The notes under the pieces: generated by a model
The model's input: only the letters and a program-made list of their open reading frames with translations
What the model was told of the DNA's origin: nothing
The model's database searches: none
DNA from: a virus
Virus record (IMG/VR): IMGVR_UViG_3300031949_000014
Reading direction: 5' to 3' (one strand)
Length of the DNA: 64,000 bases
Program-made: the position numbers and the translations under genes
Shown: positions 31,525 through 48,189 of the stretch, piece after piece
Layout of the letters: the number at the start of each line of letters is the position of its first letter
Numbering within the stretch: the first letter of the stretch is position 1

Positions 31525-31910
31525 TCAAATCTCCGACCAGCGCGTTCCTCGGCCTCGACCCAGTCGCCCCAGCTTGTGGCCCAGACGCGCCCGCGATCGA
31601 GGTCGAGGAGAATTGTCGGCTCGTAGGTCTCCCCCTTGTTCACATAGTACGCGCCGTGCGCTCCGTGCTGGTCATCGTCGTCTGAGCGGATGTACTCGAC
31701 GCCGCTTCCGTCGAGAATCTTGTCCGCTTGTTCCAACATCGCGCGCGTCTTCAACTGCCGGTCGCGCCAGGCGAGAAGCAGCTTACGGAGCTGGGAGATC
31801 TTCAGCGCAACGAATTCGTCGCTCGGGATGCGCCCAGGGAACGACAGATCCTTGCGAATCGTTGAAGAGAGCATGCGCCTGAGCATCTCTTTGCTGGGTA
31901 TGCTGCGCAT
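31521..31910 (-). CDS. Conserved phage hypothetical protein
   Basis: GVEYI...YVNKGETYEPTILLD...TSWGDWVE. Confidence 0.7.
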   Translation of the reverse strand: MRSIPSKEMLRRMLSSTIRKDLSFPGRIPSDEFVALKISQLRKLLLAWRDRQLKTRAMLEQADKILDGSGVEYIRSDDDDQHGAHGAYYVNKGETYEPTILLDLDRGRVWATSWGDWVEAEERAGRRFE

Positions 31911-32158
31911 CAGCTTTCCTCCACCTGAAAGTACTTCAAACCACGTCCGAGGCGCCAGTGCTCGATCACTCTCCCGTTGTAGAAGACGGCGATCTCGGGC
32001 CAGGTGAACATCGTCCCCGGCACGGCCATTTTCTTCATCCGGCGCACCAGGTCCGCGGCTTCCTTCTTCGTCCCGACCGCCTTCTTTCCCGACGCGTTGT
32101 CGGGTTGAAGTTCACGATGGAGCTTGTGGTCCCGCCAGACGGCGACGACGTAGGTCAC
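31910..32158 (-). CDS. Hypothetical protein
   Basis: Coupled stop/start. Confidence 0.55.
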   Translation of the reverse strand: MTYVVAVWRDHKLHRELQPDNASGKKAVGTKKEAADLVRRMKKMAVPGTMFTWPEIAVFYNGRVIEHWRLGRGLKYFQVEES

Positions 32159-32454
32159 AACCCTGCCCGCCTCAACTTGTCGTAGTACCTCGGGTCCTCG
32201 GTGAGGTGGTCCATGGCGATTTCGCGAGCGAGCTTCTTGCTCCGCGTGTGCTCCATCTCGACGCGTGTACCGATCTTCAACTGCTTCGCGCTGAAATCCG
32301 ACGGCCGCATGCCAGAAGCCCGCCCCCCAGGAATGCGTTCGCGGTATGCGGATGAAAACCCACTTCGCGCCGGTCTCGCCACGGCAGCGACCGTGAACAA
32401 GCCGATGGCCGCGGCGAGAGCAAGAGGAACAGCGCCTGGAGGAGCTTCAGCCAT
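32155..32454 (-). CDS. Membrane-anchored DUF5661-like protein
   Basis: GTRVEMEHT...AREIAMDHLTEDPRYYDKL after a TM leader. Confidence 0.75.
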   Translation of the reverse strand: MAEAPPGAVPLALAAAIGLFTVAAVARPARSGFSSAYRERIPGGRASGMRPSDFSAKQLKIGTRVEMEHTRSKKLAREIAMDHLTEDPRYYDKLRRAGL

Positions 32455-32457
32455 CGA

Positions 32458-32853
32458 TCACCTGTAGAAGTGCGCGTTCGGGTACTTCTCCAACACTTTG
32501 CGCTTCGCCTCAGCACGCGAACTCGCGCGCAGCATGGCGTCCACCGTGCCTTCGTCGTTGGCGTACCAGTAGAGCGGCGCACCCCAACCGAAGTACGTGC
32601 CGTTTGGGTCATAGCCGCCGGAGTTGAGCCGGATGCGCTGCAGCGAGAGCTTCATCGACTCCGTCGCCGGTGCTTCGTGAATCGTCCTGCGGCCGAGCGC
32701 CGCGCCTCGCCGCGGGTCGCCGCCCCAACCTCGTGGGTCGTTCCGCTTGTAGCTGGGCCCCGCGAGACCGCTGCGACGCGGACGCGCAACGACGGACACA
32801 GTGAACAACCCGATGGCCGCGGCGAGCGCGAGAGGAACTGAACCCGGAGTCAT
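32458..32853 (-). CDS. Membrane-anchored phage hypothetical protein sharing its leader with 32155-32454
   Basis: VPLALAAAIGLFTV leader; RIRLNSGGYD...YFG.GAPLY cargo. Confidence 0.7.
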   Translation of the reverse strand: MTPGSVPLALAAAIGLFTVSVVARPRRSGLAGPSYKRNDPRGWGGDPRRGAALGRRTIHEAPATESMKLSLQRIRLNSGGYDPNGTYFGWGAPLYWYANDEGTVDAMLRASSRAEAKRKVLEKYPNAHFYR

Positions 32854-33365
32854 CGACGGGCGCCTTTCCTGTACCTGTGCCTGTGCCTGAAGGCACGCAC
32901 CCCACCAAGCCCGGCGCGACGCCGGCGAGCAACGATGGCGGCCACCGAGATGGCGAGGACACCGAACGTGAGCCCCCACCAGTTTGCATGCCCGGTGATG
33001 TTCTCTTCTGGTAGCGTGACGGCTTTAGAAGGGTCGCTCACCACGAGTTCAACTCGCTGCAAGCCGGTTGTCGCCACAGCGAGCGCGCCGATTGCGCGTT
33101 GCAATTCAGCCTGCCGCGCCGCGAGGTCCTCCTTCGTACGACACCACACCCCAGAACCAAAACCGTCGTCGTACCACTGCACAGCAGACTGGAATGTCGT
33201 CCACAGAGCATCCTTCACGCTCTTTGTCAGCTTGGGGTAACGGAGAGCCTCGTCCCAGAGCGCTCCCCAATCCGCATTCAACTTCTGGGCCGCGTTGAAG
33301 TTCGCCGTGCACGCGACAACAGCGCCGAAGCCAGAGAAGGAGCGATTCTGTTGGGTCTCGAACAT
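32850..33365 (-). CDS. Hypothetical protein with C-terminal TM and basic tail
   Basis: FSGFG near the N-terminus; RAGLGG after the TM. Confidence 0.65.
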   Translation of the reverse strand: MFETQQNRSFSGFGAVVACTANFNAAQKLNADWGALWDEALRYPKLTKSVKDALWTTFQSAVQWYDDGFGSGVWCRTKEDLAARQAELQRAIGALAVATTGLQRVELVVSDPSKAVTLPEENITGHANWWGLTFGVLAISVAAIVARRRRAGLGGVRAFRHRHRYRKGARR

Positions 33366-33559
33366 CAACGGCCCTTGCGGTATCGACTGACGCACTTGAC
33401 CATCTGCCAGCGGCCACTCGGAAGCCTCTTATGAACGCAGCTCCGCATGTTGCCCATCGCGATGGCGTAACGGGCTTGCTCAATCGCCGCCCTCTTCGTC
33501 GTAAAGGTGGAGAAGTGGCGCGTCGAACTGTAGGTGGTCTTGTAGAGCTGCTTTTTCAT
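33365..33559 (-). CDS. Small basic protein
   Basis: MKKQLYK start; coupled. Confidence 0.55.
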   Translation of the reverse strand: MKKQLYKTTYSSTRHFSTFTTKRAAIEQARYAIAMGNMRSCVHKRLPSGRWQMVKCVSRYRKGR

Positions 33560-33560
33560 G

Positions 33561-33761
33561 TCAGTGGTCATAAGTGCACGGACAGTCCGCCGTGAACTCC
33601 AACTCCATCTTGGCACCCTTCCGGCGCGCGGTGATGTACTTCTGCAAAGGGCGCGAGAAGTACACGTGGCGCTTCGCGTTGGAGTACTCCGGCAACGGTT
33701 CACCTTGGTAGCCTTGGATGTGGGTGTGGTAGTCGCCCAGCGGTACGGAGACCCGGGTCAT
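33561..33761 (-). CDS. Small hypothetical protein
   Basis: ATGA overlap. Confidence 0.55.
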   Translation of the reverse strand: MTRVSVPLGDYHTHIQGYQGEPLPEYSNAKRHVYFSRPLQKYITARRKGAKMELEFTADCPCTYDH

Positions 33762-35593
33762 ACGTACCTCGCCGTCATTCTCAACGCCGAAGGTATCACA
33801 GCCGGACGCGCGGCGGAACGCACGCAGGCAGTCTGGACGACCTGGAACATCTGGCGAGTTGCCTCCACCACGGTCATCCTCTTCAACCCGTGCGCTTGGT
33901 AGCAGAGGTCGAGCATGCGAGCCTTGTCATTCGAAGTAAGACACCCCGCCTGCACTGGATTTCCTGCCACCCAGTCGTCGAGGAGTTTCTTGCAGAACGC
34001 CTGCGCGACGTCGACTTTCGGTGCTTTTGGAATCGCTGGCACGAAGGGCCTCGCGGGTGCTTTGAACAACCCCGGCTGTCCCGGCACCGACGTCGGCACT
34101 TGTGCCGATGGTGCGCCGCCTTGGAGCTGTTTCAAGCGCGCGCAGGAAGCCTGGTCACCGATGACGCACCCGGCGCGAGCGGTCTTGATTTCGGCGGCGC
34201 GCGGGTCCGCTTGAATCTGCTTCTGCCCGTACGCCTGATGTCGCGCCTGGTCCGCCCGCATCGCTTTCAACCGCGTCTCCTCGGCTTGGATGATGCGGTT
34301 CATGACGTCGAACGTGAACTTGAGCCACTGCTGTGTCGCGGGCGTCTGCGCAGCCTGGAACGCGACGGCGGCCTTGGTGAACTCTGTCACCGCTTGAAAA
34401 CGTCCAACTAACCCGCGCTGCGCGGCAGCGGCGTACTTCTGCAATTCCGCCTGCCTCGCCTGAAGCTGGCTCACGAGTGTTGGGTAATCCCCGAACCTCT
34501 TCCAGTTACCGAAGACGTCGAGGTTCTCGGGCAACTTGTTGAACTCGTCGAGCGTGGCCGACACGGCCCAGAGCCCCATTGTTGCCGGCGTGCCCAACGA
34601 GAAGCTGATCGCTTCGCCACGGAGTTGTCGCAGGTATGTCGAGCACGCGACGGCTTCTCCGAGCCCACAACGTGCTCCAGACACAGCCCAAGACGTTCCA
34701 CCACCGAACGTCCCGCCAATTTCCTGCCTGAGTGCTCGCGCCTGCGGACTGTCTAACTGCCGTGTGGTCCAGGGGATGAGGCCCAAGGCGTCGATGCCTG
34801 CGGGCACGCTCGGACAAGACCATGGCGTCTTGCACTTGACCTGCGCCGGCGGCGGCTCTGCGGCGAAGAGCTTCGAGAACGGCTTCAGGATTGCCTTGGC
34901 GGCCGACAAGCTCAAACCAAGCGGCGTGAACTTCACGACGGTCGCGATGGCCTTGAACACCGGACTCTTCCGGATCAGGTTCTTGAGCACGTTGACGCCC
35001 AACGCGACGCCGATGCCGATGACAGTACCGAGCCCCGGCACGACAGAGCCCGCGGCCGCGCCGACGACGAGCGAGGTGAGCGCGCTCGCGGCAGCTTGTG
35101 CACCGACGGTCAACGCCGTGTCGAGCGCACCTTCGACGGACGTCGGCACGAGGCTGCCGAGGGTCTTGCCTATTTCTTTGGCGTTGAACTTCTTCGGGAA
35201 CGTGATGGGGATACCGATTTCAGCTTGAACAGCTTTCTCTCCGAGCTGCCTCGCAGTGTCGTACCCGGCCTGCGCGATGCCTTTGGCGCTGAAATCAGTC
35301 GGAACCGTGAAAGGGACTCCCGTAGCCTTCGATGCCTCTCGGACGCCATACGCGGCCGCGCTGCGTGCCGCACCGCCGACGGAGGTCGGCACCTGCCCAG
35401 GTAGACCTGTTCGCTGCCACGCCTGCTGTGCGCCGTACGCGGCCGCGCTCTTCACGGCGCCCTTCGCGCCGCCGGAGGCCGCACCTTGAGCTACCGCGAC
35501 GAGTGGCGCCGGCAGAGACGGGAAAGCCGGCAGCGCCGCGAAGCCGCCGCAGCTCCCGCACCCGCAACCGCTGCCGCAGCTTTCGAGGGCCAC
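33758..35593 (-). CDS. Large Ala/Gly-rich protein with hydrophobic glycine-zipper hairpin (candidate DNA-delivery/membrane protein)
   Basis: AGGAGG RBS; SAAAYG repeats; LVVGAAAGSVVPGLGTVIGIGVALG. Confidence 0.65.
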   Translation of the reverse strand: MALESCGSGCGCGSCGGFAALPAFPSLPAPLVAVAQGAASGGAKGAVKSAAAYGAQQAWQRTGLPGQVPTSVGGAARSAAAYGVREASKATGVPFTVPTDFSAKGIAQAGYDTARQLGEKAVQAEIGIPITFPKKFNAKEIGKTLGSLVPTSVEGALDTALTVGAQAAASALTSLVVGAAAGSVVPGLGTVIGIGVALGVNVLKNLIRKSPVFKAIATVVKFTPLGLSLSAAKAILKPFSKLFAAEPPPAQVKCKTPWSCPSVPAGIDALGLIPWTTRQLDSPQARALRQEIGGTFGGGTSWAVSGARCGLGEAVACSTYLRQLRGEAISFSLGTPATMGLWAVSATLDEFNKLPENLDVFGNWKRFGDYPTLVSQLQARQAELQKYAAAAQRGLVGRFQAVTEFTKAAVAFQAAQTPATQQWLKFTFDVMNRIIQAEETRLKAMRADQARHQAYGQKQIQADPRAAEIKTARAGCVIGDQASCARLKQLQGGAPSAQVPTSVPGQPGLFKAPARPFVPAIPKAPKVDVAQAFCKKLLDDWVAGNPVQAGCLTSNDKARMLDLCYQAHGLKRMTVVEATRQMFQVVQTACVRSAARPAVIPSALRMTARYV

Positions 35594-35602
35594 AAGGGCC
35601 TC

Positions 35603-37123
35603 CTACGCCGCAGCGATCGTTCGCATCGGCCTCATCATCGGTGCGACGCGGTTGCCGAGCAACGCCCGACGCACCATACGTGCGCGCGACAGAGCGACGC
35701 TCGCCGCCTGAGCCTTCTGCAAAGCCCGAGCACGCTGTGGCCACGACATCGCCGACACCGCACTGCGCGCGGCCGCGACGCCTTGCGCCTTCAACGCCTG
35801 GAGCTTGTTCTTGCCAGCGACGCGCGTGAACGCACCGACCTGGTTCGCGAACAACTTGCGCGTGAACGCGTTGTCGGAGACCGCGTCGAGCATGTCGGCG
35901 ACCGAGAGTTCTGCCAAACCCACCGTGCTGGGCAAGAGCGGCATGCGCGGCGCGTAGTTCGAGCCCCCGCCGTAGTTCGCGCCCTCGGAGGGGTCGATGA
36001 CGTTCGTGCGCGCCGTGCTGAACGGCGTCAGGTACCTCGACGGCGAGCTGCGGCCGGTGCCGGGGCCCGTCGGCGTCATGCTCGAGCCCGCGGCTTCGAA
36101 GTACGCGTCGAGCGACGCGAAGTCGCCGTACGTGTCCGCGCGGCCGGTCGGGATCGGTCCACCCGAGAGGCCGTGGAAGTCGGCGTACGTGTCGGCGCGA
36201 CCGGTCGGGAGTCCGCCAGCAAGACCAGCGTTCGAAGGCGTGAGCGGCATGCCGCCAGTCCACGACGAGCCGCCCGAGTACAGAGCGCCGCCGGAAGGGT
36301 CGATGACGTTCGTGCGCGGCGGCAGAACGCCGGTCGCGATGCTGCGCAGGTCTGCGTCGGCGAAGTCGCCGGCGAGGCCGACTGCACTGGGCATCACGGG
36401 CATACCCGGCGCCCAATTCGAACCGCCGCCGTAGTTCCCTCCTTCGGAAGGATCGATGACGTTGCGGCGCACCGTGGAGAACGGAGCGACGTAGCGGGAG
36501 GGGGAGCTGCGTCCGGTCGCCGGACCCGTCGGCGTCATGCTCATAGCATCGCCGTCGAGCGCCGCAAAGTCAACGTACGTGTCTGCGCGACCTGTTGGGA
36601 GGGGACCTCCGGCAAGACCGGAAAGAGGCATCTGCATCTGCTGAATCCACGATTGAACTCTGGCCCTCGGCAGAGTGGCGGGCCAAACATCCAAGACTTG
36701 CCCCGTTTTTGCGAGATAGACAAAGCTGTCTTCATACACGTCGTGGTGTTGCCCAGGTGTCGCTTGAGCAGCTTGCGTGGCTTTGATCAATTCGCGAAAG
36801 ATGCCCTGCGCTCTACCACGACCGTTCGTGCGCTGAACGCTCGTTGGTTGTTCTCCCCCGAGCACTTGAACCACCACGTACGGAGACACGGCTCCAAGAC
36901 CCCCCGCGAGGCCGATGCTGCTGGGCAACAACGGCATGCGCGGCGCGTAGTTTGACCCGCCGCCGTAGTTCGCACCTTCGGACGGGTCGATGACGCCGCT
37001 GCGCGCCGTCGAAAACGGCGTGAGATAGCGCGAGGGGGAGCTTCGCCCTGTCGAGAGGCCCGTCGGCGTCATGCCGTCCAAGCCGTCGAGTACGGCGATT
37101 TCGTCTCCCAAGTGCCTGCTCAT
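35603..37123 (-). CDS. Repeat-rich protein (putative polyprotein), 506 aa
   Basis: GGAGG RBS and ATGA overlap at 37123; VIDPSxG repeat x4, PTGRADTY repeat x3. Confidence 0.8.
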   Translation of the reverse strand: MSRHLGDEIAVLDGLDGMTPTGLSTGRSSPSRYLTPFSTARSGVIDPSEGANYGGGSNYAPRMPLLPSSIGLAGGLGAVSPYVVVQVLGGEQPTSVQRTNGRGRAQGIFRELIKATQAAQATPGQHHDVYEDSFVYLAKTGQVLDVWPATLPRARVQSWIQQMQMPLSGLAGGPLPTGRADTYVDFAALDGDAMSMTPTGPATGRSSPSRYVAPFSTVRRNVIDPSEGGNYGGGSNWAPGMPVMPSAVGLAGDFADADLRSIATGVLPPRTNVIDPSGGALYSGGSSWTGGMPLTPSNAGLAGGLPTGRADTYADFHGLSGGPIPTGRADTYGDFASLDAYFEAAGSSMTPTGPGTGRSSPSRYLTPFSTARTNVIDPSEGANYGGGSNYAPRMPLLPSTVGLAELSVADMLDAVSDNAFTRKLFANQVGAFTRVAGKNKLQALKAQGVAAARSAVSAMSWPQRARALQKAQAASVALSRARMVRRALLGNRVAPMMRPMRTIAAA

Positions 37124-37881
37124 GATGTCCTCCAGTTGCGTTTGTAGCGCTTTTTCGAGAATTTTCCTAGCCCCGCCAAGGCGGTCTTTCGTCGGTTCAA
37201 CCAGATGGCGAGCGCGCCGAGGCCGATGCCGCCCCAAATGACGGCGCTCTTCCAATCGGTGGGTCTCTCGGGTTCGAGCGCCTTGCACTCTTCGACCGTG
37301 AGCTTCTTCTCGAGGCACAGCTTCCGGAGCTTCTCCACGGAGCCGTAGTAGGTCTCCACCTCACCGTTGAGGACGTTGTCCAACCCCTGCGCGGCGACCG
37401 CGGCACCGCCCGCCACGGCGACCGCGGGAGTCCTCAAGAGCATGACGAGCCCTTCCCAGAGGGGTCCGGCAAAGCGCGCGGCCCAAGAGGCAACTTGCTC
37501 AAGGTCGCCGAAGCCTTGAAGCAGTCCCATGACACGTGCCGACCCCGCCGGGATGTCCGGCAACGGGGTCAACAACAAGTCGACAACCCGTTTTACGTTC
37601 GATGTTACCTCGGCGAAGTACGCCTCGAGCTCGCCGACGCGACCGAAGCCGGAGAAACCGACACCAGCGGTCTCGATGACACCTTGAAGCTTCGAATCCT
37701 TCTCGATGATGTCCGCGGCGCGCTGCTTCAAGCGCTCGGCCGCACGGAGCCAGTCCGCGTACGCCTCCAGCACCTCCGGACGAAGCGTGCCTCCGGCCAA
37801 GATCGCGGCATCGATGGCGGCGGAGAGCGGCCCGACGCTCTTGCCGAAGGACTGCAAGGTCGAGACAAGCTTTGTCCACAT
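37120..37881 (-). CDS. Helical protein with C-terminal TM and basic tail (start may be GTG 37923)
   Basis: Contains FSGFG, QGFGD and AGLGK; TM VIWGGIGLGALAIWL. Confidence 0.65.
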   Translation of the reverse strand: MWTKLVSTLQSFGKSVGPLSAAIDAAILAGGTLRPEVLEAYADWLRAAERLKQRAADIIEKDSKLQGVIETAGVGFSGFGRVGELEAYFAEVTSNVKRVVDLLLTPLPDIPAGSARVMGLLQGFGDLEQVASWAARFAGPLWEGLVMLLRTPAVAVAGGAAVAAQGLDNVLNGEVETYYGSVEKLRKLCLEKKLTVEECKALEPERPTDWKSAVIWGGIGLGALAIWLNRRKTALAGLGKFSKKRYKRNWRTS

Positions 37882-37909: not shown

Positions 37910-40510
37910 TCAGCGGCGAACACTGGATCGTCCCTTCGCCTTGAACTTCGGGGACACGCGCGACGTCCGCGCGGTCGACGTCGGGGGTTTGCTCTTCGAG
38001 AACGCAAGCGCGAGGCCGCCGGCGGCGGCGAGGCCCAGGAAGATCGCTCCAGCACCCATGCCGCCCTCTTCGGTGGCAGGGGGCGCGGGAGGAACGTCTG
38101 GCGGAGGAGCAACCGGACCATCGACCGGTGGCGCATCAGGAGGCGGCTGGTACGGAGGCGGCGCAATCGGAGGCGGAACGTCCGGCGGAAGCGGCTGGTA
38201 CGGAGGCGGCGCAATCGGAGGTGGTGGTTGCGGTTGCTCACCGCCTCCGTTGATCGGGGGCTTCTGGTCGAACAAGCCGAACTTCTGAGCTTGTTCAAAC
38301 TCTTGAGGATCGAGCTGCTCGCCCGCGGAGATCTTCCCCTGCAAGCACCCGCGCAAGTCGCCTCCTCGAGAGAAGCAGCTTCCACCGATTGGCGGATTCC
38401 CTCCGTACTGCTTCTCCAGCCAGATCTGCTCACCCTTCGCGACGACTTTACCTTGCGCCGCTGGCAACAAAATCGTCCGCGCATCCGACGACAAGAGGCG
38501 AGGCAACGCGCGCACGGTGATCTCGCGAAGCGTCGGAGTCATCTGAAACAGATCGAAGTAGGCCGCCTGCGTCGCATCGTCCCACGTGCCGCTCGCCACG
38601 ACCTTCGGGTACTTGTTCGTCACCATCAACGTGTGCTGCAGCGCGAGTACCGGTGTCGGCACAGTAGAGAGCTTGACGACAGCGTTGACCTCCGCATCTC
38701 CGGTCGGCTTCGACGGCTTCTTCGGCTCGACGATGCCGCCCGCTGCGGCCTTCAATGCCTCGTACGTGGCGGGGTTCACCGCCATCGTCACACCGTCGAC
38801 GCGCGAGACCCCCTGGTCGAGCTTGCGCCTGCGCGCTTGATCTTCCCACGCGCGCTTGGTGTCCGGACCCCACTTGCCGTCCGAGATCTTCCCTTTGGAA
38901 CCGAGCTTTCGAACGATGCCCTGACCCTCGGTCACCGAAATGTTGATGCTCCCAGCCGGCGTCGGCACAGGCTTCTTTCTGTCGTCCGGCACCGGTGCAC
39001 GCGCTGCCTCGTCCTTCAACCGAGCGTACGCGTCGGCATCCACGGCCATCGTCTTGCCGTCGATGCGCACGGCGTTCTGCGCGAGGCCGCGAGCCTTCGA
39101 TGCGCGCTGCCACGCGCCCTGCGTGTTCGCGCCGAACAGACCGTCGACGACCAGCGGTTTGCCGTTGTTCCCTGGAACACCGAGGGCCTTCAAGATGGTC
39201 TGAGCCTCGAAGACCGCGACTGGAACACCCGCGACAGTTGGCGGGAGCTTCTTCGGTTGGTCTGGCACCGGCGGCTTGTCTGCCTCGGTCTTCAAGCGGG
39301 CGAGCGTGTCGGCCGACACGGCCATCGTCTTGCCGTCGATGCGCGAGACACCGGAATTCAAACCGCGCTGCTTGGCTGCGGTCTCCCACGCAAACTGCGT
39401 GTTCTGACCGAAGAGCCCGTCGGTCTTCAGCGTCTTTTTGTCCTTCCCCTTCACCCCGAGTTTCACCAAGAGGATCTGAGCCTCGAATACAGAAGTCGCC
39501 ACAGCTCCAGCCGGCAAGCCTTTCGGCGCAGGCTTCGGTCCCTCAGGTGTCGTAGGCTTCTCGGGCGTGGGCGGCGCGGCCTTGGCGCCGTCGGCTTGGA
39601 TCTTGTCGTACGTCGCCTGACTCACTCGCGCGGTGCGCCCATCCACGCGCTCGAACGTCTGCGGCAGCCCACGGAGCTTCGCGGAGAACGCCCATGCAGT
39701 CTTGGTCTGCGGACCGTAGAGGCCGTCCTTCGTCAACTTCTTCGACGTCCAGCCCACGCCGTACAAGAGCTCTTGCAGCTCGAGCACCGGGCGTTCGACG
39801 GTGCCCGCGCGCGGCGCGGTCGCGGTCTCCTTCGGGATGCTCGGAGCCAGAGCCTTTGGTTGAGGCGTGCTCTTCGCGACGGCCTCGAGCGCGGCCAACG
39901 TCTGTTGGTTCACCGTGGCGGTCTTGCCGTCGACGCGCTCGAAGAGAGGCGAGAGGCCGCGCTTGGTGGCGGATTGAATCCAAGCTCCGCGCGTCGCAGG
40001 ACCGAACTTGCTGTCGGGGTTCACCTGCTTGGTCGTCCAGCCGAGGCGGTTCAAGAGGCGCTGCAGGTCGAGCACGGGGCGACGGACGGTGCCTGGAGCA
40101 CTGGGGGTGCCGGAAGGAAGCGCTGTAGGCGTTGACGTCGGCGATGCGGCCGACCACGCCGGGACCTGGTCGGTGTACGCCGGGCGCAAGTTCTGCACCG
40201 TGACCGGATGCACCCACGCCGTCTGCGGCCCTGCGCGGTCGAACGCCGGGTTCAGACCCTTCGAGATTGCCAGCTTCTGCCACGCCGCGCGCGTGTTCGG
40301 GCCGTAGAGTCCGGCACCGCCCGCGGTCAACAGAGTGCCGCTCGGGCTCTTCGTCACGCCGTTGGCTTCGAGAAGTTGCTGCGCCTCAAGCACGCTGAGC
40401 TGCGTGAGTCCCGACGACGCGGGCACGACGGTCGCCGAGAGCGCGTCGCCCGCGGAGAACTCGTCGAGGTAGCTCGACAGTCCCTGTAGGTCGTCGTAGC
40501 CGCGCATCAC
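37910..40510 (-). CDS. Seven-repeat peptidoglycan-binding-like protein with Pro-rich stalk and C-terminal TM
   Basis: Repeats such as VLELQELL...DGLYGPQTKTAW...FERVDGRTARV. Confidence 0.8.
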   Translation of the reverse strand: MMRGYDDLQGLSSYLDEFSAGDALSATVVPASSGLTQLSVLEAQQLLEANGVTKSPSGTLLTAGGAGLYGPNTRAAWQKLAISKGLNPAFDRAGPQTAWVHPVTVQNLRPAYTDQVPAWSAASPTSTPTALPSGTPSAPGTVRRPVLDLQRLLNRLGWTTKQVNPDSKFGPATRGAWIQSATKRGLSPLFERVDGKTATVNQQTLAALEAVAKSTPQPKALAPSIPKETATAPRAGTVERPVLELQELLYGVGWTSKKLTKDGLYGPQTKTAWAFSAKLRGLPQTFERVDGRTARVSQATYDKIQADGAKAAPPTPEKPTTPEGPKPAPKGLPAGAVATSVFEAQILLVKLGVKGKDKKTLKTDGLFGQNTQFAWETAAKQRGLNSGVSRIDGKTMAVSADTLARLKTEADKPPVPDQPKKLPPTVAGVPVAVFEAQTILKALGVPGNNGKPLVVDGLFGANTQGAWQRASKARGLAQNAVRIDGKTMAVDADAYARLKDEAARAPVPDDRKKPVPTPAGSINISVTEGQGIVRKLGSKGKISDGKWGPDTKRAWEDQARRRKLDQGVSRVDGVTMAVNPATYEALKAAAGGIVEPKKPSKPTGDAEVNAVVKLSTVPTPVLALQHTLMVTNKYPKVVASGTWDDATQAAYFDLFQMTPTLREITVRALPRLLSSDARTILLPAAQGKVVAKGEQIWLEKQYGGNPPIGGSCFSRGGDLRGCLQGKISAGEQLDPQEFEQAQKFGLFDQKPPINGGGEQPQPPPPIAPPPYQPLPPDVPPPIAPPPYQPPPDAPPVDGPVAPPPDVPPAPPATEEGGMGAGAIFLGLAAAGGLALAFSKSKPPTSTARTSRVSPKFKAKGRSSVRR

Positions 40511-41346: not shown

Positions 41347-41952
41347 CTACGTATTCCGCGGGGTGCAGGCGACGAGGTCGCCGACGATTTGGATGCCCAG
41401 CTCCTTCGTCGTTCCGACGAGAGCGGGCCAGCGTGCGGTGTCGACGAACCACGCGACATCGAGGTCCGTGCCTGGCACGGTGATGTACACGCCGTCGAAC
41501 TCGGTCGGCACGACGCCGCCCGGAGACAGCGTCGACTGCATCGACACCGGGCGCTTGAAGACGTCGAAGTTGCGGCCATTCTCGCGGATGTTGAAGTCGA
41601 CGAGGAAGGGTGAAGCGCCGGCGAGGTCCGGGTCCATCATGAAGCCGATGACCTTCCGGATGGCGAAGTTGTAACGCGAGACCAACGTCACCGCGTTGGT
41701 CTGGCGGACGATGTTGCCGGCGGGGTCGATCTGAACCGTGAACTTCAGGTCGTCGACGCGCATGTCCTCCGGCGCCAAGATGCCAGAAGCGAGGTCCGAG
41801 TAGAGCTGGACGAGCTGGCCGGGCGGGACCGGGACCCCGCGCAGGATGGGCATGCCCGCGGTCGGCACCTGCCCAGGAACGCCCATCTGAGGAGAACCTG
41901 CCGGCGCAATGCCGGGCGTGTCTCCGAACCCTCTCCGCATCGGCCAGTTCAT
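41347..41952 (-). CDS. Single jelly-roll-like capsid protein candidate
   Basis: YNFAIRKV...VDFNIRENGR...VFKRPV...ITVPGTDLDV...IQIVG. Confidence 0.55.
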   Translation of the reverse strand: MNWPMRRGFGDTPGIAPAGSPQMGVPGQVPTAGMPILRGVPVPPGQLVQLYSDLASGILAPEDMRVDDLKFTVQIDPAGNIVRQTNAVTLVSRYNFAIRKVIGFMMDPDLAGASPFLVDFNIRENGRNFDVFKRPVSMQSTLSPGGVVPTEFDGVYITVPGTDLDVAWFVDTARWPALVGTTKELGIQIVGDLVACTPRNT

Positions 41953-42036: not shown

Positions 42037-42702
42037 CTACTTCGAGACAGCCGCGCGGACGAGGCCGTGCAAGAAGTTCGTCGCGATGACGGGCTGCTCG
42101 ATGTCGGGGTTCGCGTAGGTGAGACCCACCGAAGCCAGTTGCGTCACGAGCCACTGACGCGCGTCGTAGGTGATGGTCCCGTCCAGTTCGTGGTTCTGGT
42201 TCAGGAGCTGCTTCTTCACCAAGCGAGCGGCCGAGGCCGTCGCCGGCACGCCGACGGAGATGATGCCCGAGTCCACTTCGGTCGACTGACCGTAGAGGCC
42301 ATAGCCCGAAGGGAACTTCACGATCGGACCTTCGTCCTGCAAAATTCCGTTGATGGCGAGACGGTAGAAACCGTTCTCGACGATCTTCTTGACGTCGCGC
42401 GGCACGGTCACCACGTCGCCGGTGGCGAGGCGGAAGTACAGGCCGATGCGATCGAGCACCATCGACTCGCCCGCGGACAGCTTGCGGGGGGTCTTGATGT
42501 TCGTGTCGACGTTGCGCTTGCCCTGCACGTCGTTGAAGAAAGTGAACTCGGTGCCCGCCGTGATTACTCCCGGCAAGACCACGATCGAGTCGTACTTGTC
42601 CGACTCGCGGAAGTCGCGGATGTTGACGATCTCACCGCTCTGGTCGTTCCGGTAGAGACCGGGCTGACCTTCGATCGGCTGCAAAACGGGCACCTGATTC
42701 AT
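42037..42702 (-). CDS. Putative major capsid protein (single jelly-roll)
   Basis: YDS...FTFF...GK..DTN...LSAGESMVLDRIG pattern; strong RBS, double stop, downstream hairpin. Confidence 0.55.
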   Translation of the reverse strand: MNQVPVLQPIEGQPGLYRNDQSGEIVNIRDFRESDKYDSIVVLPGVITAGTEFTFFNDVQGKRNVDTNIKTPRKLSAGESMVLDRIGLYFRLATGDVVTVPRDVKKIVENGFYRLAINGILQDEGPIVKFPSGYGLYGQSTEVDSGIISVGVPATASAARLVKKQLLNQNHELDGTITYDARQWLVTQLASVGLTYANPDIEQPVIATNFLHGLVRAAVSK

Positions 42703-42808: not shown

Positions 42809-43393
42809 TCAGGCCATCCAGGGGCCGTAGCCCCCGAGCGTCTCTTGCTGCGTCACGACGCCGCCGAAGCCCATCAAGGCCTCGGGCGTCACGGTCGGGT
42901 CAGCGAACTGTCCGCGCGCGAACGCGCCGGGTGAGCCCTGCACGTTCACCGCTTCGAGGGCCGAGAGCGCGCCGCCGTTGTACGCGCCCAAGAGCGCGAG
43001 GTCACCGGCCGACAGCTCGGACGAGTCCGGCATCTGGCCGAGCGGGTTGCCGCCACCGAGCAGATTCGCATCGACGTAGGAGTCGATGAGCTGCGCGAGG
43101 GCGAGACCGCCGACGCCGCCGATGACGGCGATCGCCGCATCGCGGTTGTAGTCCCACAACATGCGAGCCGCGAGGCCCGCTCCGACCAGCGCGAGGCCCG
43201 CGCGCAAGCGGTGCTGGTTCGGCTCCGACCACGTCGAAGGAGTCGGCAGCTTCGGCATCGCCCAAGCGGCCAACAGAATCGCGCCGGCGCCTGCGCCCGC
43301 GGCGATCACTTGCTCCTGCAACATCGCAGGAGTCATGAACGCGCCCATGTCGTCGTAGAGGCCCATGCCCATGTCGTCGTAGTCGCGAAGCAT
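42809..43393 (-). CDS. Multi-TM membrane protein upstream of the putative MCP
   Basis: GGAGG RBS; three hydrophobic helices. Confidence 0.7.
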   Translation of the reverse strand: MLRDYDDMGMGLYDDMGAFMTPAMLQEQVIAAGAGAGAILLAAWAMPKLPTPSTWSEPNQHRLRAGLALVGAGLAARMLWDYNRDAAIAVIGGVGGLALAQLIDSYVDANLLGGGNPLGQMPDSSELSAGDLALLGAYNGGALSALEAVNVQGSPGAFARGQFADPTVTPEALMGFGGVVTQQETLGGYGPWMA

Positions 43394-43466: not shown

Positions 43467-45149
43467 TCAAGTCGGAAAGATTCGCGACGCGTCGACCATC
43501 GCCTTCGGAGCTTCCCAACCCACAGGCATGTTGACGGAAGCGTCGAACGAAATCCACTTCTTCGGATTCCTACGCGGGTGACCGACCTGCGCGTAGATGT
43601 GATTCCACTCCGGCGAACCCTTCGTCCTGATGACCTTGAACCGACAAGGTAAACCCAGAGTCGCGGCCGAAGCGCAGGTCAAAACAGAGTAATCATCGCA
43701 GTTGTGAACGATGACATCTTGCTCGGGCAAGTAGAACCTGTGGCTGTCGGTTTCGATGTCGTACACAGGCACGTAGTCGCCCTCGGAAATGCTGCGCACC
43801 TTAGCCCACGGACGAGAGAAATTATCCACCCGAACCGTGACCCGATAGATCGGGTTGAGCCCAAACCCACCGTGCTCAGTCACACGCTTTATGGACGTAC
43901 TTCTGCCGCAGATGCGTTGGAGGATCCTGTACTGGACCGCGAGCAACTTCGACGTCGTAGAGAACACGAAATTCTTACCGCTGGTCGAAAACCCACCGTC
44001 CGCGCTCAAGCCTTCGAGCAGCTTCTCCGCGGTCTGTTTTGACCATCGCGTGTGAGGTAACTGCTTGTGGACAGCCGTGGTGCCGCAACCGGAGAAGAGC
44101 TTTGCTACCGCACCTGGGCCCGCGTCTCCATCTGACAAGTAGATCTCGCGCTCGTGCTCCCGCACAGTGAACCCGAGACTCTTGGCGTGCTTTGCCGCCT
44201 TCTCGCGGATGCCTTTGCCGTTGCATACCCCCGCGATTCCGACGCACGCGAGCGCACCATCCACACGAAACCGACGACGACTTCCCTCGGCCAAATAGGC
44301 CCCTAGAAGAAAAGCCTCGTCGTCGGACAGCTCTTGTGTGTCGGAGAAAGCTGTCTCGCGAGGCTGCAACAAATCGTTGCCCGGCCGCACAGCACTGGCC
44401 AGCACCTCTTCAACCTGTGCGAACCCTCCTGCCCTCCCACTCTGTTGAGGAACGCGGAATAGCTTGTGGCCTTCAGTGCAACGCAACACCGAGCCGTTGT
44501 TCAGTTCCAAATCCAGAGTTGACTGGATTCCCTTGTCCCACCAGTTCGTGACCTTCGCCCAACCTGTGCCGTCGAAGATGACCTCGCCGACCTTGATGTC
44601 TTCGATGGCGACCAAGAGGCCGTCCGCGCGCAAGAGCTGCGTTCCCTCCGGCAAGCAATCCCCAGTGCGCAGCTTCAACGTGTGCCTGGGCGCCTGGTAG
44701 GAATCGATGCCGGCGATGTCGGACGTGTACCGGACGTTCCCGCGGATGGCTTGGAAGAGGGCTTTGATCTCGGCGAGGTTGTCCTTCTCCGGGACACACC
44801 AGTTGGAGCCGCATTTCTTGTTCACCGCGCGGCGCGCGAACTCGTAGACGACGGGGTCTCGCTTGCCTTGCTCGACGAGCTTGCGGAGGTACTCGATGCG
44901 CTCGTCCAAGTTCTTGATCTGGTGGGTCTTCAGCCGAATGTCCCCTGACGGCGTCTTCGCGTGTTGCCCTTCGAAACCTCTGACGTAAGTGCTGGACGAA
45001 GACCGCGCCGAACCTCGTCCCGAAGTACGGCTAGCACGTTGACTCCGTGTCGTGTTTGACGGGGAGCTTAGGTGCCGGGCCCCGACGGAAAGCTGCCGGA
45101 GGCCGAGCACCACGGACGCCAAACCCAGCACGACGTTACCGAGCGCCAC
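43467..45149 (-). CDS. Transglutaminase-like Cys protease interrupted by an intein
   Basis: Spliced RTGD-CDDY; NHIY; FDAS; N-terminal hydrophobic anchor. Confidence 0.85.
   Translation of the reverse strand: MALGNVVLGLASVVLGLRQLSVGARHLSSPSNTTRSQRASRTSGRGSARSSSSTYVRGFEGQHAKTPSGDIRLKTHQIKNLDERIEYLRKLVEQGKRDPVVYEFARRAVNKKCGSNWCVPEKDNLAEIKALFQAIRGNVRYTSDIAGIDSYQAPRHTLKLRTGDCLPEGTQLLRADGLLVAIEDIKVGEVIFDGTGWAKVTNWWDKGIQSTLDLELNNGSVLRCTEGHKLFRVPQQSGRAGGFAQVEEVLASAVRPGNDLLQPRETAFSDTQELSDDEAFLLGAYLAEGSRRRFRVDGALACVGIAGVCNGKGIREKAAKHAKSLGFTVREHEREIYLSDGDAGPGAVAKLFSGCGTTAVHKQLPHTRWSKQTAEKLLEGLSADGGFSTSGKNFVFSTTSKLLAVQYRILQRICGRSTSIKRVTEHGGFGLNPIYRVTVRVDNFSRPWAKVRSISEGDYVPVYDIETDSHRFYLPEQDVIVHNCDDYSVLTCASAATLGLPCRFKVIRTKGSPEWNHIYAQVGHPRRNPKKWISFDASVNMPVGWEAPKAMVDASRIFPT
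43701..44657 (-). mobile_element. 319-aa intein with LAGLIDADG homing endonuclease
   Basis: C1-LPEGTQL, CTEGHKLF (block B), LLGAYLAEGS, LLEGLSADGG, VYDIET, VIVHN then C+1. Confidence 0.93.
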
Positions 45150-45176: not shown

Positions 45177-47318
45177 CTACGCAACGGTGCCGTCATCCGC
45201 GCCTTCCGCGTCGGACGCGGGCGGAGAGATCTCGTTCTCGTCTTCGGGTGTCTCTTGTTCTTCGGCATCCGCTCGCGCCTCGGCGAGCTGTTGCACGTGC
45301 GTGACGAGCTCTTCGAAGTGCGCGTCGACTGCGGCAAACGCCCGTTCCGCGACTTCGTTCTGCAAGAGGTTGCTCTTCACGAGACCGCCGACGAGCTGAC
45401 GCACGTAGCGCAGAGCCACTTCCTTGTTGCCTGTGCTGATCGCGTCGAGCGTCGTGTTCCCGACGCCGCTCCACGGCTCGTAGATGCTCGACAGGTAGAG
45501 CAAGAACTCAACCGTCGCCTCGACAAGCGCGCCGTCGTCTTGCGCGATGATGAAGCCGTTGATGTGCTCGACGATGTTTGGTGGAAGGCCCGGCGTCGCG
45601 GGCGGCTGCATCTTCGCAGCGGCCTCTGGTGTTGCCGTCGCGGGCGGAGGCGTGACGACGGCTGTCGGCGCGGCTGCAACGGTCGCAGGCGGTGTGCCAG
45701 CGGTGAGCCCGAGGCGTGCTTCTTCCTCGGCGAGCTTTCGCTCTTCGATGGCGAGCCTGCGACGCGCAACGTCTGCTGCTCGTGCCTGCACGTCAGCCGG
45801 AATCTGTTGGGGTTGTTGCTGTTGCGGCTGAGGTTGTGACTGCACAACCTTCGCCGTCGCCGTTTGTCCCGACTTCGCGCGGATGAGCCCGGCGACCGAA
45901 CCGACGAGCTCGCGGTTCGAGAGGGCGCCGCCCAAGATGTCGCCCCACATGCTGCCAGCAGAAGGCTCGGTCTGCTGTCGCATCGTGGAGACCGCCTGCA
46001 TGATGCCGGTGAAGTTGTCCATCGACTTCTTGAAATCGTCGGTGCCTTTTTCCCCGCGGAGCTGGTTCACCAGGCCGATGATGTCGGCGGTGGACATGCG
46101 GTCTCGGTTCATCTGCTCGAGCAGAATCGGCGTGAGATTGTCGGCGGGCTTCAAGGCCACGAGCACGGCTGCGATGCCTTGGAGCTGGGCCATCGGGTCC
46201 GGCGGCGTGACCATCGGCGGCATTGGAGCGCTCGAACCTTTGTCGTCGAGCAACTTCGCGAGCAACGTCATCATGACGGGGTCGGCTTCCTTGCGTCCAA
46301 GGATCGACATGAGTTGCATCATGCGTTCTTCGGACTTCTGCTGCTGCTGGGTCATCACCTGCAGCATCGTGGCGGTCTGCTGTCCCATCGCCTGGACCAT
46401 CGCGACGACGGTGTCGCCTTTGCCGGAGCCACCGGAGAGCTTCTCGCTGAAGTCGTGAATCTTGGTGAGCTGCTCGATCGGGTCCGTCGGGTCGTTCTTC
46501 TTCTCCATAATTTCGCGCAGCTCTCGGTCGCGGCGTTGGCCGTCGCGTTCGATCTGCCGCATGAGTAAGTCCCCGAGGCCGCCTTCGCCGCGGCCCCCAC
46601 CGCCGCTATGTCCTCCGTCGGTCGGTTCCACGGTGCCCAGAATGCGGACGACGCCTGCATCCAGACGCTTGCCGTCGGAAGTGATGCCGAAGATTTGATA
46701 GTCCCCCGCCCCGTACTGTGGCTTGGCGTAGCGGTTGAGGAACGAGGCCATGCCCTGCGACTGCGCGAGGTCAGCGGCGTTGTAGTCGCCGACGTAGCCG
46801 AGCTGGCCATTGTCGGAGCGCTTCCAGACTTCGAAGTGCTCGGCGCCGGGGATCTTGTTCCCAAGAATCGTCCCGAGCTTCTTCAACGCCTGTGTCGTGG
46901 CCGGGCGTAGCTCTCGAAGCTCCGGCACTTGCGGAAGCTCTTCTTCCTCCGACGCAGCTACCGCTGCTTTCTGTCCGCGCGGCTTGCGTGTTCTCGGTTG
47001 CGTCTGTGGCGGCGTTGCGGGTCGCGCGAGAGGCGAGGGCGCGGCTGGCGCGGGCGTTTCGTCCGAGAGATCTTCCGACGGCGCTTCTTCGCCCGTCGAC
47101 GACGGCTGCTCGTCTTCACCTTCACCTCGGACCTCCTCTTCGTCAGACGGATCTTCCGCCGGCGCCTCTTCGACCACTGCCGCACGAGCGACACGACGCG
47201 CGCTCCCGCGCTCTTCGAGCTCGCTGAGGTCGAGATTCGGCGGCGCGGCGGGCGCCTTCTTCGTGCGCGTGCGGGTGCGAGGGGCCTCGGTCGTCACGGT
47301 GTCGGCTTCAAGCGTCAT
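45177..47318 (-). CDS. Large low-complexity hypothetical protein (713 aa)
   Basis: AGGAG RBS inside the recombinase 3' end; acidic/Pro-rich N-terminus and Gln/Met-rich middle. Confidence 0.75.
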   Translation of the reverse strand: MTLEADTVTTEAPRTRTRTKKAPAAPPNLDLSELEERGSARRVARAAVVEEAPAEDPSDEEEVRGEGEDEQPSSTGEEAPSEDLSDETPAPAAPSPLARPATPPQTQPRTRKPRGQKAAVAASEEEELPQVPELRELRPATTQALKKLGTILGNKIPGAEHFEVWKRSDNGQLGYVGDYNAADLAQSQGMASFLNRYAKPQYGAGDYQIFGITSDGKRLDAGVVRILGTVEPTDGGHSGGGGRGEGGLGDLLMRQIERDGQRRDRELREIMEKKNDPTDPIEQLTKIHDFSEKLSGGSGKGDTVVAMVQAMGQQTATMLQVMTQQQQKSEERMMQLMSILGRKEADPVMMTLLAKLLDDKGSSAPMPPMVTPPDPMAQLQGIAAVLVALKPADNLTPILLEQMNRDRMSTADIIGLVNQLRGEKGTDDFKKSMDNFTGIMQAVSTMRQQTEPSAGSMWGDILGGALSNRELVGSVAGLIRAKSGQTATAKVVQSQPQPQQQQPQQIPADVQARAADVARRRLAIEERKLAEEEARLGLTAGTPPATVAAAPTAVVTPPPATATPEAAAKMQPPATPGLPPNIVEHINGFIIAQDDGALVEATVEFLLYLSSIYEPWSGVGNTTLDAISTGNKEVALRYVRQLVGGLVKSNLLQNEVAERAFAAVDAHFEELVTHVQQLAEARADAEEQETPEDENEISPPASDAEGADDGTVA

Positions 47319-48189
47319 CGGTCTCTCCTTGGGCTCTGCCCACTGCGGCAACGATTTCGTCTTCACCGATTGCCAGGTAGTGCCGCATCAGCGTGCTGAC
47401 GTCGGCGTGCCCGGCGAGCTTGGCGAGGACGATCGGGTCCACGCCCTTCTTGTAGAGGTTAGTGAGGTAAGTCCGCCTGAACGTGTGCGGAGTGAACTCC
47501 TGCCCATCGTCGCGCAGGCTCGAGACAGCAACGCGCAGCGTGTGCCCCGCTATGTGGCCCTTTTGGCGCCCAGGGAAGAGCCAGCGCTTGTCTGGGAGCT
47601 TCTTTCGCCAGCCGAGGTACTCGTGCAAGACTTCGATGCCCTCGAGCAGGGGGACCACGCGCTGGTGCCCGCCTTTACCTTCGACCTTCAGGCAGTACAC
47701 CTCGCGCCGTCCGTCTTTGAACTTCACCGGCACGCGCTTGAGACAGTGGTACGAGAGCGTCACGACCTCGCCGGAGCGCAGGCCCGTGTACGGCAAGAGC
47801 ATCGCCGCGGTGCGCGTTGGCTCGCCGAGGCGGTCTTCCGCGGCCTCCAGATACGCCTCGAGGTCCTCGTCGCTCAAGACCTCGCGCACGCGGCGCACGA
47901 CGCGCAGCTTCTCCGGCGCGTGTAGCTCCGGCACGTCGATGCCCTGGAGCTTGAGCCAGCGCACGTAGCGCCGCACGCCCGCGACTTTCACATTCACGGT
48001 CGAGGGCGAGCATCCGTCGGCCAGGAGCATCGAGCAGTAGTCCGACAGCACGTTGGGCGAGACCTTCGTGATGTCGCGCACGTCGGTCTCTTCGAGCCAG
48101 CGATAGAAGCGCCCTACCGCGTAGTAATACTGGTACGCGGTCTCCTCGCGACGCACGGACTTCATGTGCTCTAGAAACTTCGTGCTCAT
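47308..48189 (-). CDS. Tyrosine recombinase/integrase (XerC/D-like)
   Basis: YTGLRSGEV, KGKGGHQR, TPHTFRRT, LAGHADVSTLMRHY. Confidence 0.92.
   Translation of the reverse strand: MSTKFLEHMKSVRREETAYQYYYAVGRFYRWLEETDVRDITKVSPNVLSDYCSMLLADGCSPSTVNVKVAGVRRYVRWLKLQGIDVPELHAPEKLRVVRRVREVLSDEDLEAYLEAAEDRLGEPTRTAAMLLPYTGLRSGEVVTLSYHCLKRVPVKFKDGRREVYCLKVEGKGGHQRVVPLLEGIEVLHEYLGWRKKLPDKRWLFPGRQKGHIAGHTLRVAVSSLRDDGQEFTPHTFRRTYLTNLYKKGVDPIVLAKLAGHADVSTLMRHYLAIGEDEIVAAVGRAQGETDDA

Follow-up and report, generated by a model that had tools for sequence, protein, structure and literature searches.

A conserved repeat protein in the core gene block of an uncultured virus lineage and its possible role as a multivalent docking protein of the particle

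Repeat modules of the window's protein

We analysed a 64,000-nucleotide stretch of DNA from an uncultured soil virus (IMG/VR record IMGVR_UViG_3300031949_000014; the whole stretch is hereafter called the window) and studied one gene within it, which occupies 35603..37123 on the (-) strand and encodes a repeat protein of 506 residues (P0001) whose translation start agrees with the N-termini of its relatives. The ATG of this gene overlaps the upstream stop codon (ATGA) and is preceded by a GGAGGA Shine-Dalgarno sequence, while only 9 nucleotides separate its TAG stop from the GTG of the next gene, indicating that the repeat-protein gene is translationally coupled to both neighbours and lies inside an operon. 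An original prediction, made from the window alone, had described the product as a repeat polyprotein composed of two kinds of peptide cassette, A and B, separated by short linkers.

All modules of the protein lie on the (-) strand. Read from the N-terminus, they begin with the motif DEIAVLDGLDG (residues 7-17; 37073..37105), which contains the family-conserved IAVLDG, followed by the long cassette A1 (residues 18-74; 36902..37072), which matched a cassette hidden Markov model (HMM) with an independent E-value (i-E) of 2.5e-19. An insert of ~92 residues (residues 75-166; 36626..36901), which ends in SGLAG and which comparison showed most relatives to lack, separates A1 from the short cassette B1 (residues 172-192; 36548..36610), which ends in DFAALDG, the ALDG being where the canonical part of the protein begins. 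The long cassette A2 (residues 196-252; 36368..36538; i-E 1.8e-19) then precedes the short cassette A' (residues 264-303; 36215..36334; i-E 1e-18), which lacks a leader of ~25 residues and corresponds to the middle cassette of the family plan. Cassettes B2 and B3 (residues 304-320 and 321-339, together 304-339; 36107..36214) take the place of a GGYGRAGLG doublet found in other clades, and the long cassette A3 (residues 349-405; 35909..36079; i-E 4.2e-21), which ends in GLAE, leads into a C-terminal basic helical hairpin predicted by AlphaFold2 (residues 404-495; 35639..35914). The three full copies and one truncated copy of cassette A and the three copies of cassette B (PTGRADTYxDF) named in the original prediction were thus recovered in full, as were its junction tetrapeptides, which we located as GLDG at residues 14-17, GLAG at 71-74, 169-172, 249-252 and 300-303, ALDG at 188-191, GLSG at 317-320, SLDA at 336-339 and GLAE at 402-405.

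These repeats go far beyond chance. At the DNA level the gene contains repeat families of 172 nucleotides in three copies (74-78% identity), 56 nucleotides in four copies and 68 nucleotides in three copies, with an overall identity range of 62-82%, and the HMM, which was built from relatives, found four cassettes in the window protein at i-E 1e-18 to 4e-21. The GL[AG]G motif occurred 4 times, versus 0.2 expected from shuffled sequences. Comparison of the long cassettes with each other revealed 75-88% identity in protein and 73-77% in DNA, with different codons at 40-47% of the residues that are identical between them, indicating that the copies are old and that each has been maintained by purifying selection rather than produced by recent slippage.

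The insert is missing from P0002, a 329-residue relative 93% identical to the window protein, and is located elsewhere in the protein in P0003. AlphaFold2 assigned it only weak helices (residues 105-120 and 156-162) with a predicted local distance difference test (pLDDT) value below 60, and Pfam gave no match to it. In alignment A4, the N-terminal IAVLDG of the relatives fell on the internal FAALDG of the window protein (residues 186-191), indicating that residues 1-190, which comprise A1, the 92-residue insert and B1, form an extra unit ahead of the canonical protein; P0002 lacks this unit. The ALDG junctions are explained by the same arrangement, since the duplication unit begins with the N-terminal IAVLDG motif. 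Judged from these sequence comparisons, the window protein has been expanded to four cassettes and an extra inserted module, probably through duplication or recombination between repeat units.

Family plan, predicted disorder and a portable cassette

A word-indexed search recovered 104 relatives, all of them labelled "hypothetical" and all from metagenomes or metagenome-assembled genomes (MAGs), on contigs of up to 108 kb. Clustered at 90% identity, the family still numbers more than 100 groups, whose metagenomic sources include soil, with JGI 3300037483 among the samples that contain such contigs. Searches against described proteins were negative: Pfam-A returned a sub-threshold chance match only (IBV_3B, 19 bits versus a cut-off of 27), PHROGs nothing, a profile search of PDB sequences with alignment A1 a best E of 2.1, and blastn and tblastn against 50,697 GenBank phage records no match. 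The ESM Atlas offered nothing usable for P0002, and a literature search found no published description of the lineage or the protein.

Family counts were taken over 105 members, with cassette number scored by the cassette HMM. Three cassettes were present in 89/105 proteins, four in 11 and five in 3. The pattern [IVL]A[VIL]L[DEN]G occurred within the first 40 residues of 101/105 members, and I-A-V-L-D-G was invariant in alignment A1. The family plan has IAVLDG at position 5-10, followed by a long cassette, a short cassette, two B motifs, a second long cassette and a basic C-terminus, with a median net charge of +15 over the final 90 residues. The B motifs read GGYGRAGLG in most clades and PTGRADTYxDF in the clade of the window. 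The original prediction had proposed repeat-number variation among relatives as a check; proteins with four and five cassettes exist and P0002 has three where the window protein has four, but three is by far the usual number.

Within the cassettes, V.D.S.G....GGS......PL..S..GLA was invariant or nearly so in each of the three copies across 17 diverse members, against a mean column identity of 47%. A sequence logo of 278 cassettes displayed an unbroken conserved motif of 34 residues, of the form NVIDPSxGxNYxGGS...PLxPSxxGLA, that ends in P-L-x-P-S-x-[AV]-G-L-A. Concerted evolution of the cassettes inside one protein was considered and gave a weak signal, with a similarity of 0.73 between cassettes 1 and 3 of one protein versus 0.68-0.70 between proteins.

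AlphaFold2, run with a 41-sequence alignment, predicted residues 1-400 at pLDDT <50 for nearly all positions (mostly 30-45), and residues 404-495 as a helical hairpin at pLDDT 93-98, with helices at 426-436, 438-457 and 461-490. The conserved motif islands sit among variable linkers within the predicted disorder. Together, these predictions suggested that the conserved linear motifs are strung along a disordered chain, which one small folded basic domain anchors. In a fold search with the protein model, the hairpin alone aligned, to generic helical hairpins (NINJ2, EzrA, PspA, Snf7 and BAR) at Z 6.5-7.5, which is under the level meaningful for helices. We also considered an amphipathic, membrane-binding helix in the tail and rejected it, because the maximum hydrophobic moment of the C-terminal helices was 0.39, versus a shuffled median of 0.50.

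The cassette is portable, since single copies head other proteins of the same gene block in relatives. The HMM detected one N-terminal cassette on a large, very basic downstream protein in locus L005 (10996-12693) and one on a small, C-terminally transmembrane (TM)-anchored protein in locus L002 (10893-11381); reading of the sequences identified one N-terminal cassette each on P0103, an 815-residue protein of different architecture whose contig equals that of the family member P0009 in length, and on P0378, another small protein with a C-terminal TM anchor. In the window, the translationally coupled 611-residue gene downstream (33758..35593, (-) strand) has counterparts that begin with one cassette in some relatives, and lacks a cassette itself. 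The same short motif is thus found at the termini of unrelated block proteins of three architectures, and because several different proteins of one particle would carry it, it behaves like an address or docking tag.

Gene block, candidate partners and a docking role

Seven loci from JGI, Logan, NCBI and IMG/VR were compared, six of which were long enough to show the surroundings of the gene, and the same block was found in 6/6 with strictly conserved synteny. The block runs from a tyrosine integrase through a ~700-residue protein, a ~240-residue transglutaminase-core enzyme, a ~195-residue multi-TM protein and proteins of ~220, ~200 and ~140-160 residues to a large protein of 860-1200 residues with peptidoglycan (PG)-binding-like repeats, after which the repeat-protein gene follows. 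The two complete relatives, G001 and G002, have direct terminal repeats, one genome measuring 88.8 kb and the other 82.7 kb, and genes for a family-A DNA polymerase and a primase-helicase are present in G001. None of the hallmark Pfam or PHROG virion families matched in the block, and no HK97 capsid, portal or terminase was recognisable in the lineage; Terminase_6N had no match in G001 or G002, and a simple Walker-A scan of the window and G001 recognised no packaging ATPase. No eukaryotic signal was seen, and relatives sit on contigs assigned to MAGs of Gemmatimonadota and Anaerolineae, from which a prokaryotic host is presumed.

Two proteins of the block are candidate capsid proteins. Candidate 1, of 221 residues (42037..42702, (-) strand), is 61-68% identical across loci and has 195 representative clusters; candidate 2, of 201 residues (41347..41952, (-) strand), is 58-61% identical across loci, with 168 homologues and a conserved core of ~160 residues. 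In distant relatives they were the best conserved of the block proteins compared (58-68% versus 26-56% identity) and the only ones put above 55%. With the 221-residue model (pLDDT 53), every top Foldseek match in PDB and BFVD was a single jelly-roll capsid protein, and VIA-align likewise returned jelly-roll capsids, with a best Z of 6.6, which is suggestive of a jelly-roll capsid protein as far as this model goes. Profile searches of PDB sequences with alignments A5 and A6, made from the 221- and 201-residue proteins, respectively, returned nothing significant. The jelly-roll-type matches of this low-confidence model, together with the many TM proteins of the block, would make the block a virion or morphogenesis module, and the lineage may be one of large bacterial viruses with jelly-roll capsid proteins.

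Minor capsid, cement or scaffold proteins that are extended and for the most part unstructured are known beneath jelly-roll capsomers, among them P30 of PRD1, P2 of Paramecium bursaria chlorella virus 1 (PBCV-1), protein B of phiX174 and the N-terminal peptides of adenovirus pVI and pVII in the hexon cavity. From the repeats, the family, the signs of selection, the predicted disorder with a folded tail, the synteny and the portability of the motif, we infer, as a tentative preference, that the repeat protein is present in the virion as an uncut, intrinsically disordered and multivalent docking protein, either a cement or a scaffold of the particle, and binds its partners there. Its first ~400 residues would be a flexible string carrying the IAVLDG motif, the 34-residue cassettes and the short B motifs, ending in the folded basic hairpin. 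Each cassette would be a portable docking motif that becomes ordered only on binding a single conserved component of the virion. The two candidate jelly-roll-like capsid proteins encoded upstream are the most likely partners, since they alone match the cassette in degree of conservation. The basic hairpin would hold a polyanion, which might be DNA, the head groups of acidic lipids or a protein surface of acidic character, so that one molecule could tie approximately three capsid subunits or capsomers to the interior of the particle, as a cement or tether or as an assembly scaffold. An uncut protein fits the data better than a peptide factory does, because exactly three cassettes occur in 89/105 members, the long-short-long order is fixed, the N-terminal motif is conserved and the C-terminal domain is folded.

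Several points weigh against this docking role. The number of cassettes differs between the window protein and P0002, which are 93% identical, indicating that valency is not tightly fixed and arguing against a strict ruler role. The low similarity difference between cassettes of one protein and those of different proteins does not indicate strong co-evolution of the cassettes with one shared partner. A membrane-binding role of the C-terminal helices is unsupported, because they are not amphipathic. The capsid assignment of the 221-residue protein depends on a low-confidence model (template-modelling score 0.25-0.35, Z <8). Lastly, the abrupt end of conservation at GLA plus G/A/D/E, and the GLAG- or ALDG-like end of every module type, also resemble protease sites, a matter taken up below.

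The same multivalent binding could also serve a transient assembly scaffold, which would organise capsomers and perhaps a membrane and then leave or be degraded, so that mature particles would lack it. A disordered string with a C-terminal basic helical hairpin would suit such a role, the hairpin being reminiscent of the basic helix-turn-helix with which the P22 scaffolding protein attaches to its coat protein, and the disorder of phiX174 protein B, and the gene lies in a putative morphogenesis block in which a nearby protease-like enzyme could remove the protein. We nevertheless consider a purely transient scaffold unlikely, since the gene follows a large envelope-type protein rather than adjoining the capsid genes, and classical scaffolds are mostly helical, not rich in Gly, Ser and Pro.

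That envelope-type neighbour is encoded in the window as an 866-residue protein (37910..40510, (-) strand) with PG_binding_1-like repeats (Pfam PG_binding_1, 1.2e-13; endolysin-type PHROG matches), a Pro-rich region and a C-terminal TM anchor. Its gene lies just upstream of the repeat-protein gene in all loci and directly adjoins it except in the lineage of the window and L001, where the large protein, intact at 1104-1203 residues in L005 and L007, is split into pieces of 866 and 253 residues. The 253-residue gene (37120..37881, (-) strand) encodes the C-terminal part of the large protein as a separate piece, matching the C-terminal region of the L005 and L007 proteins (1104 and 1203 residues), although the match reaches the very end of the large protein in L007 only. 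The 253-residue piece carries a TM anchor and ends in RRKTALAGLGK plus a basic tail.

Constant proximity to a PG-binding-repeat protein raises the question of whether the repeat protein acts with it in penetration of the cell envelope or in ejection, at entry or exit, with cassettes that bind a component of the host envelope. Two relatives, P0012 and P0018, bear on this idea, as they carry a different inserted module (residues 95-215 in P0012), and the P0012 insert aligned weakly to several PG-binding-like repeats of the neighbour protein (E 0.07-0.5 each). Pfam, however, found no PG-binding domain in either insert, so that a PG-binding domain there was rejected, the pairwise similarity to the neighbour repeats being weak. 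Moreover, the repeat protein has neither signal peptide nor TM segment, and the cassette is unlike any known wall-binding repeat; we therefore regard an envelope role as quite improbable. The P0018 insert resembles that of P0012 by eye only, and the window's own insert is unrelated to both; the disordered string seems to tolerate varied small domains inserted between its cassettes.

Other proteins of the block have short conserved segments of their own. The 194-residue multi-TM protein of the window (42809-43393, (-) strand), which has orthologues in L002-L007, displays a conserved acidic N-terminal YDDxMGL[DE] and a C-terminus of PTVTPExLMGF...ETLGxY, and the large neighbour protein starts with [DE]YL[GS][ED]F. 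These segments may be further short docking motifs. The ~700-residue protein (45177-47366, (-) strand), which adjoins the integrase, has a long, charged and disordered N-terminus and a Gln-rich middle; it matched no family, and the ESM Atlas supplied only poor models and unnamed viral clusters. It may be a portal-like, scaffold or vertex protein.

Cleavage at the module junctions

The original prediction had read the protein as a precursor that is chopped into short capsid-cementing or core peptides, in the manner of adenovirus and African swine fever virus (ASFV), or as a multi-core peptide precursor. In those systems, adenovirus precursors pVI, pVII, pVIII, pIIIa and pX are cut by adenain, ASFV pp220 and pp62 by pS273R, and poxvirus core precursors by I7. 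Part of this reading held, namely a string of short conserved modules with variable linkers in a virion-type block, with a sharp edge of conservation after GLA and a Cys-His-Asp enzyme encoded upstream, whereas the adenain consensus and the multi-core peptide idea did not.

In a processed polyprotein, a virion protease would cut directly behind GLA or beside it, and behind the ALDG-type junctions; cassette peptides would then be liberated as cement or core peptides bound to the capsid, and the insert and the basic hairpin would be set free. Conservation indeed falls sharply there: G-L-A is conserved at 100/100/97% in the logo and followed by G, A, D or E, beyond which conservation collapses. 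All module types, even the lineage-specific insert with its SGLAG, share one kind of end tetrapeptide, and the single N-terminal cassettes on other block proteins resemble removable targeting propeptides, a behaviour known from the capsid-targeting sequences of T4. GLA is, on the other hand, merely the last three residues of a continuous 34-residue motif, and three cassettes in fixed order with a conserved N-terminal motif and a folded C-terminal domain are atypical of a precursor that amplifies its copy number. Stand-alone single-cassette genes also hardly exist, with 3 small proteins in 5.8 billion clusters, one being the TM-anchored P0378 and at least one of the remaining two fragment-like.

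The candidate protease is a transglutaminase-like enzyme with an N-terminal TM anchor, whose gene in the window (43467..45149, (-) strand; Pfam Transglut_core 7.8e-8, Intein_splicing and LAGLIDADG) is interrupted by an intein. Intein-free orthologues, such as the 241-residue one at L001 2963-3688, range from 224-262 residues. The motifs of Cys (GDCDDY), His (WNHIY) and Asp (D[AG]S) are retained in all loci, so that the block of every relative encodes a papain-like enzyme whose triad is intact, at a distance of five to six genes upstream of the repeat-protein gene. It is the sole protease-like gene of the block, Pfam scans of the window's block proteins having returned only Transglut_core as such; a role as a cell-wall amidase or in cross-linking would be just as plausible for the enzyme.

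The fit of LAGG and LSGG to an adenain-type site, on which the original prediction had drawn, proved peculiar to the window copy. Among 324 cassette ends in relatives, the (M/I/L)XGG|X form was represented by LxGG in 10 (3%) and the (M/I/L)XGX|G form by LAGxG in 25 (8%), and the residue behind GLA was G in 47%, A in 20%, D in 17% and E in 9%. The clan CE family Peptidase_C48 (PF02902) had no match in G001 or G002, whereas it did match control genomes; a search for Peptidase_C5 (PF00770) was uninformative, as it matched neither G001 nor G002 nor its control. On two points that define a substrate of adenain type, the junction consensus and the C48 protease, the repeat protein thus falls short.

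In two small membrane proteins of the window (32850-33395 and 32458-32979, (-) strand), the hydrophobic segment leads straight into such a junction (TM-RRRR-AGLGG and TM-RPRR-SGLAG), which would be in keeping with cleavage at these sites; both are conserved in L001, the only one of the loci compared in which the motif was seen. A code for cleavage or loading, G[LF][AGS], shared across the block was also considered. The motif occurred 43 times in the window's block versus 20.6 expected, and 35 versus 18.5 without the repeat protein, as compared with 15 versus 18.6 in other genes. This 2-fold excess was unseen in G001, where 11 occurrences outside the repeat protein stood against 10.6 expected, and the code was set aside. 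On balance, we regard processing of the repeat protein as doubtful and rank it behind an uncut docking protein.

Excision of the cassettes as cores of a ribosomally synthesised and post-translationally modified peptide (RiPP) precursor, to be modified into bioactive peptides, is far less credible still and is disfavoured. It draws on the repeated core-like cassettes only and on a radical S-adenosylmethionine (SAM)/SPASM enzyme encoded in G001 (31743-32894, (-) strand; L009 11743-12894) at ~3 kb from the structural block. This enzyme is not conserved in the window, which has no counterpart; the conserved neighbourhood consists of structural and membrane genes and contains no maturase, transporter or immunity gene, and a protein of 320-500 residues with a conserved folded tail does not suit a precursor of this kind.

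Relation to known systems and significance

The repeat protein shares features with several known systems, and is a member of none of these families, since no homology was detectable. With the precursors of adenovirus, ASFV and poxviruses it would share a jelly-roll capsid context (here model-based), short peptide segments under or inside capsomers (here proposed) and small-residue junctions that contain Gly; the fit of LAGG and LSGG to (M/I/L)XGG is a likeness of the window copy only. It differs from adenain-type substrates in that the junction of the family is GLA plus G/A/D/E, with LxGG in 3%, and in that no clan CE protease was found with C48 (the C5 control having failed), and from the adenovirus and ASFV systems in a host that is presumably prokaryotic. 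Like PRD1 P30, PBCV-1 P2 and other cement or tape-measure minor capsid proteins of membrane-containing jelly-roll viruses, it is proposed to be a non-globular, extended protein that contacts several capsomers from the inside, is encoded in a putative structural module and has no enzymatic domain, but it has no sequence or profile similarity to them and is distinguished by discrete 34-residue repeats and a folded basic hairpin.

P22 gp8, with its basic C-terminal helix-turn-helix, and phiX174 B, which is disordered and binds a jelly-roll coat protein, resemble the repeat protein in a basic helical hairpin at the C-terminus and in disorder with conserved contact motifs that contain aromatic residues, but differ from it in gene position and in lacking its repeat architecture, with no detectable homology. 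Encapsulin cargo-loading peptides and the T4 capsid-targeting sequences offer a further likeness, in that one short motif is placed on the termini of unrelated particle proteins; the cassette is longer, at 34 residues, and is used in tandem on one carrier, and its binding to a shell is putative.

A bolder form of the processing idea, which we consider unlikely, is that an ~85-kb bacterial virus with a jelly-roll capsid matures in a manner similar to adenovirus and ASFV but with different parts. A membrane-anchored cysteine protease of transglutaminase fold would cut the repeat polyprotein at GLA|x and at ALDG-type junctions and remove single N-terminal cassettes elsewhere, and peptides of 34-60 residues would stay under the capsomers as cement. 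If true, a prokaryotic jelly-roll virus would for the first time be seen to mature by proteolysis and to use a polyprotein, and cleavage of the cassette would extend adenovirus-style maturation to bacterial viruses.

The family is large, strongly conserved and wholly unannotated, and its genes form part of the core block of a virus lineage, as yet uncultured, whose genomes measure 83-89 kb and have terminal repeats. Taken together, our results indicate that this strongly conserved, previously unannotated repeat protein is most likely a minor structural or assembly protein composed of linear motifs. Its portable 34-residue motif offers a testable handle on how the particle is built, and if the cassette docks proteins to the capsid, it would be usable as a targeting tag, in the way of encapsulin cargo peptides.

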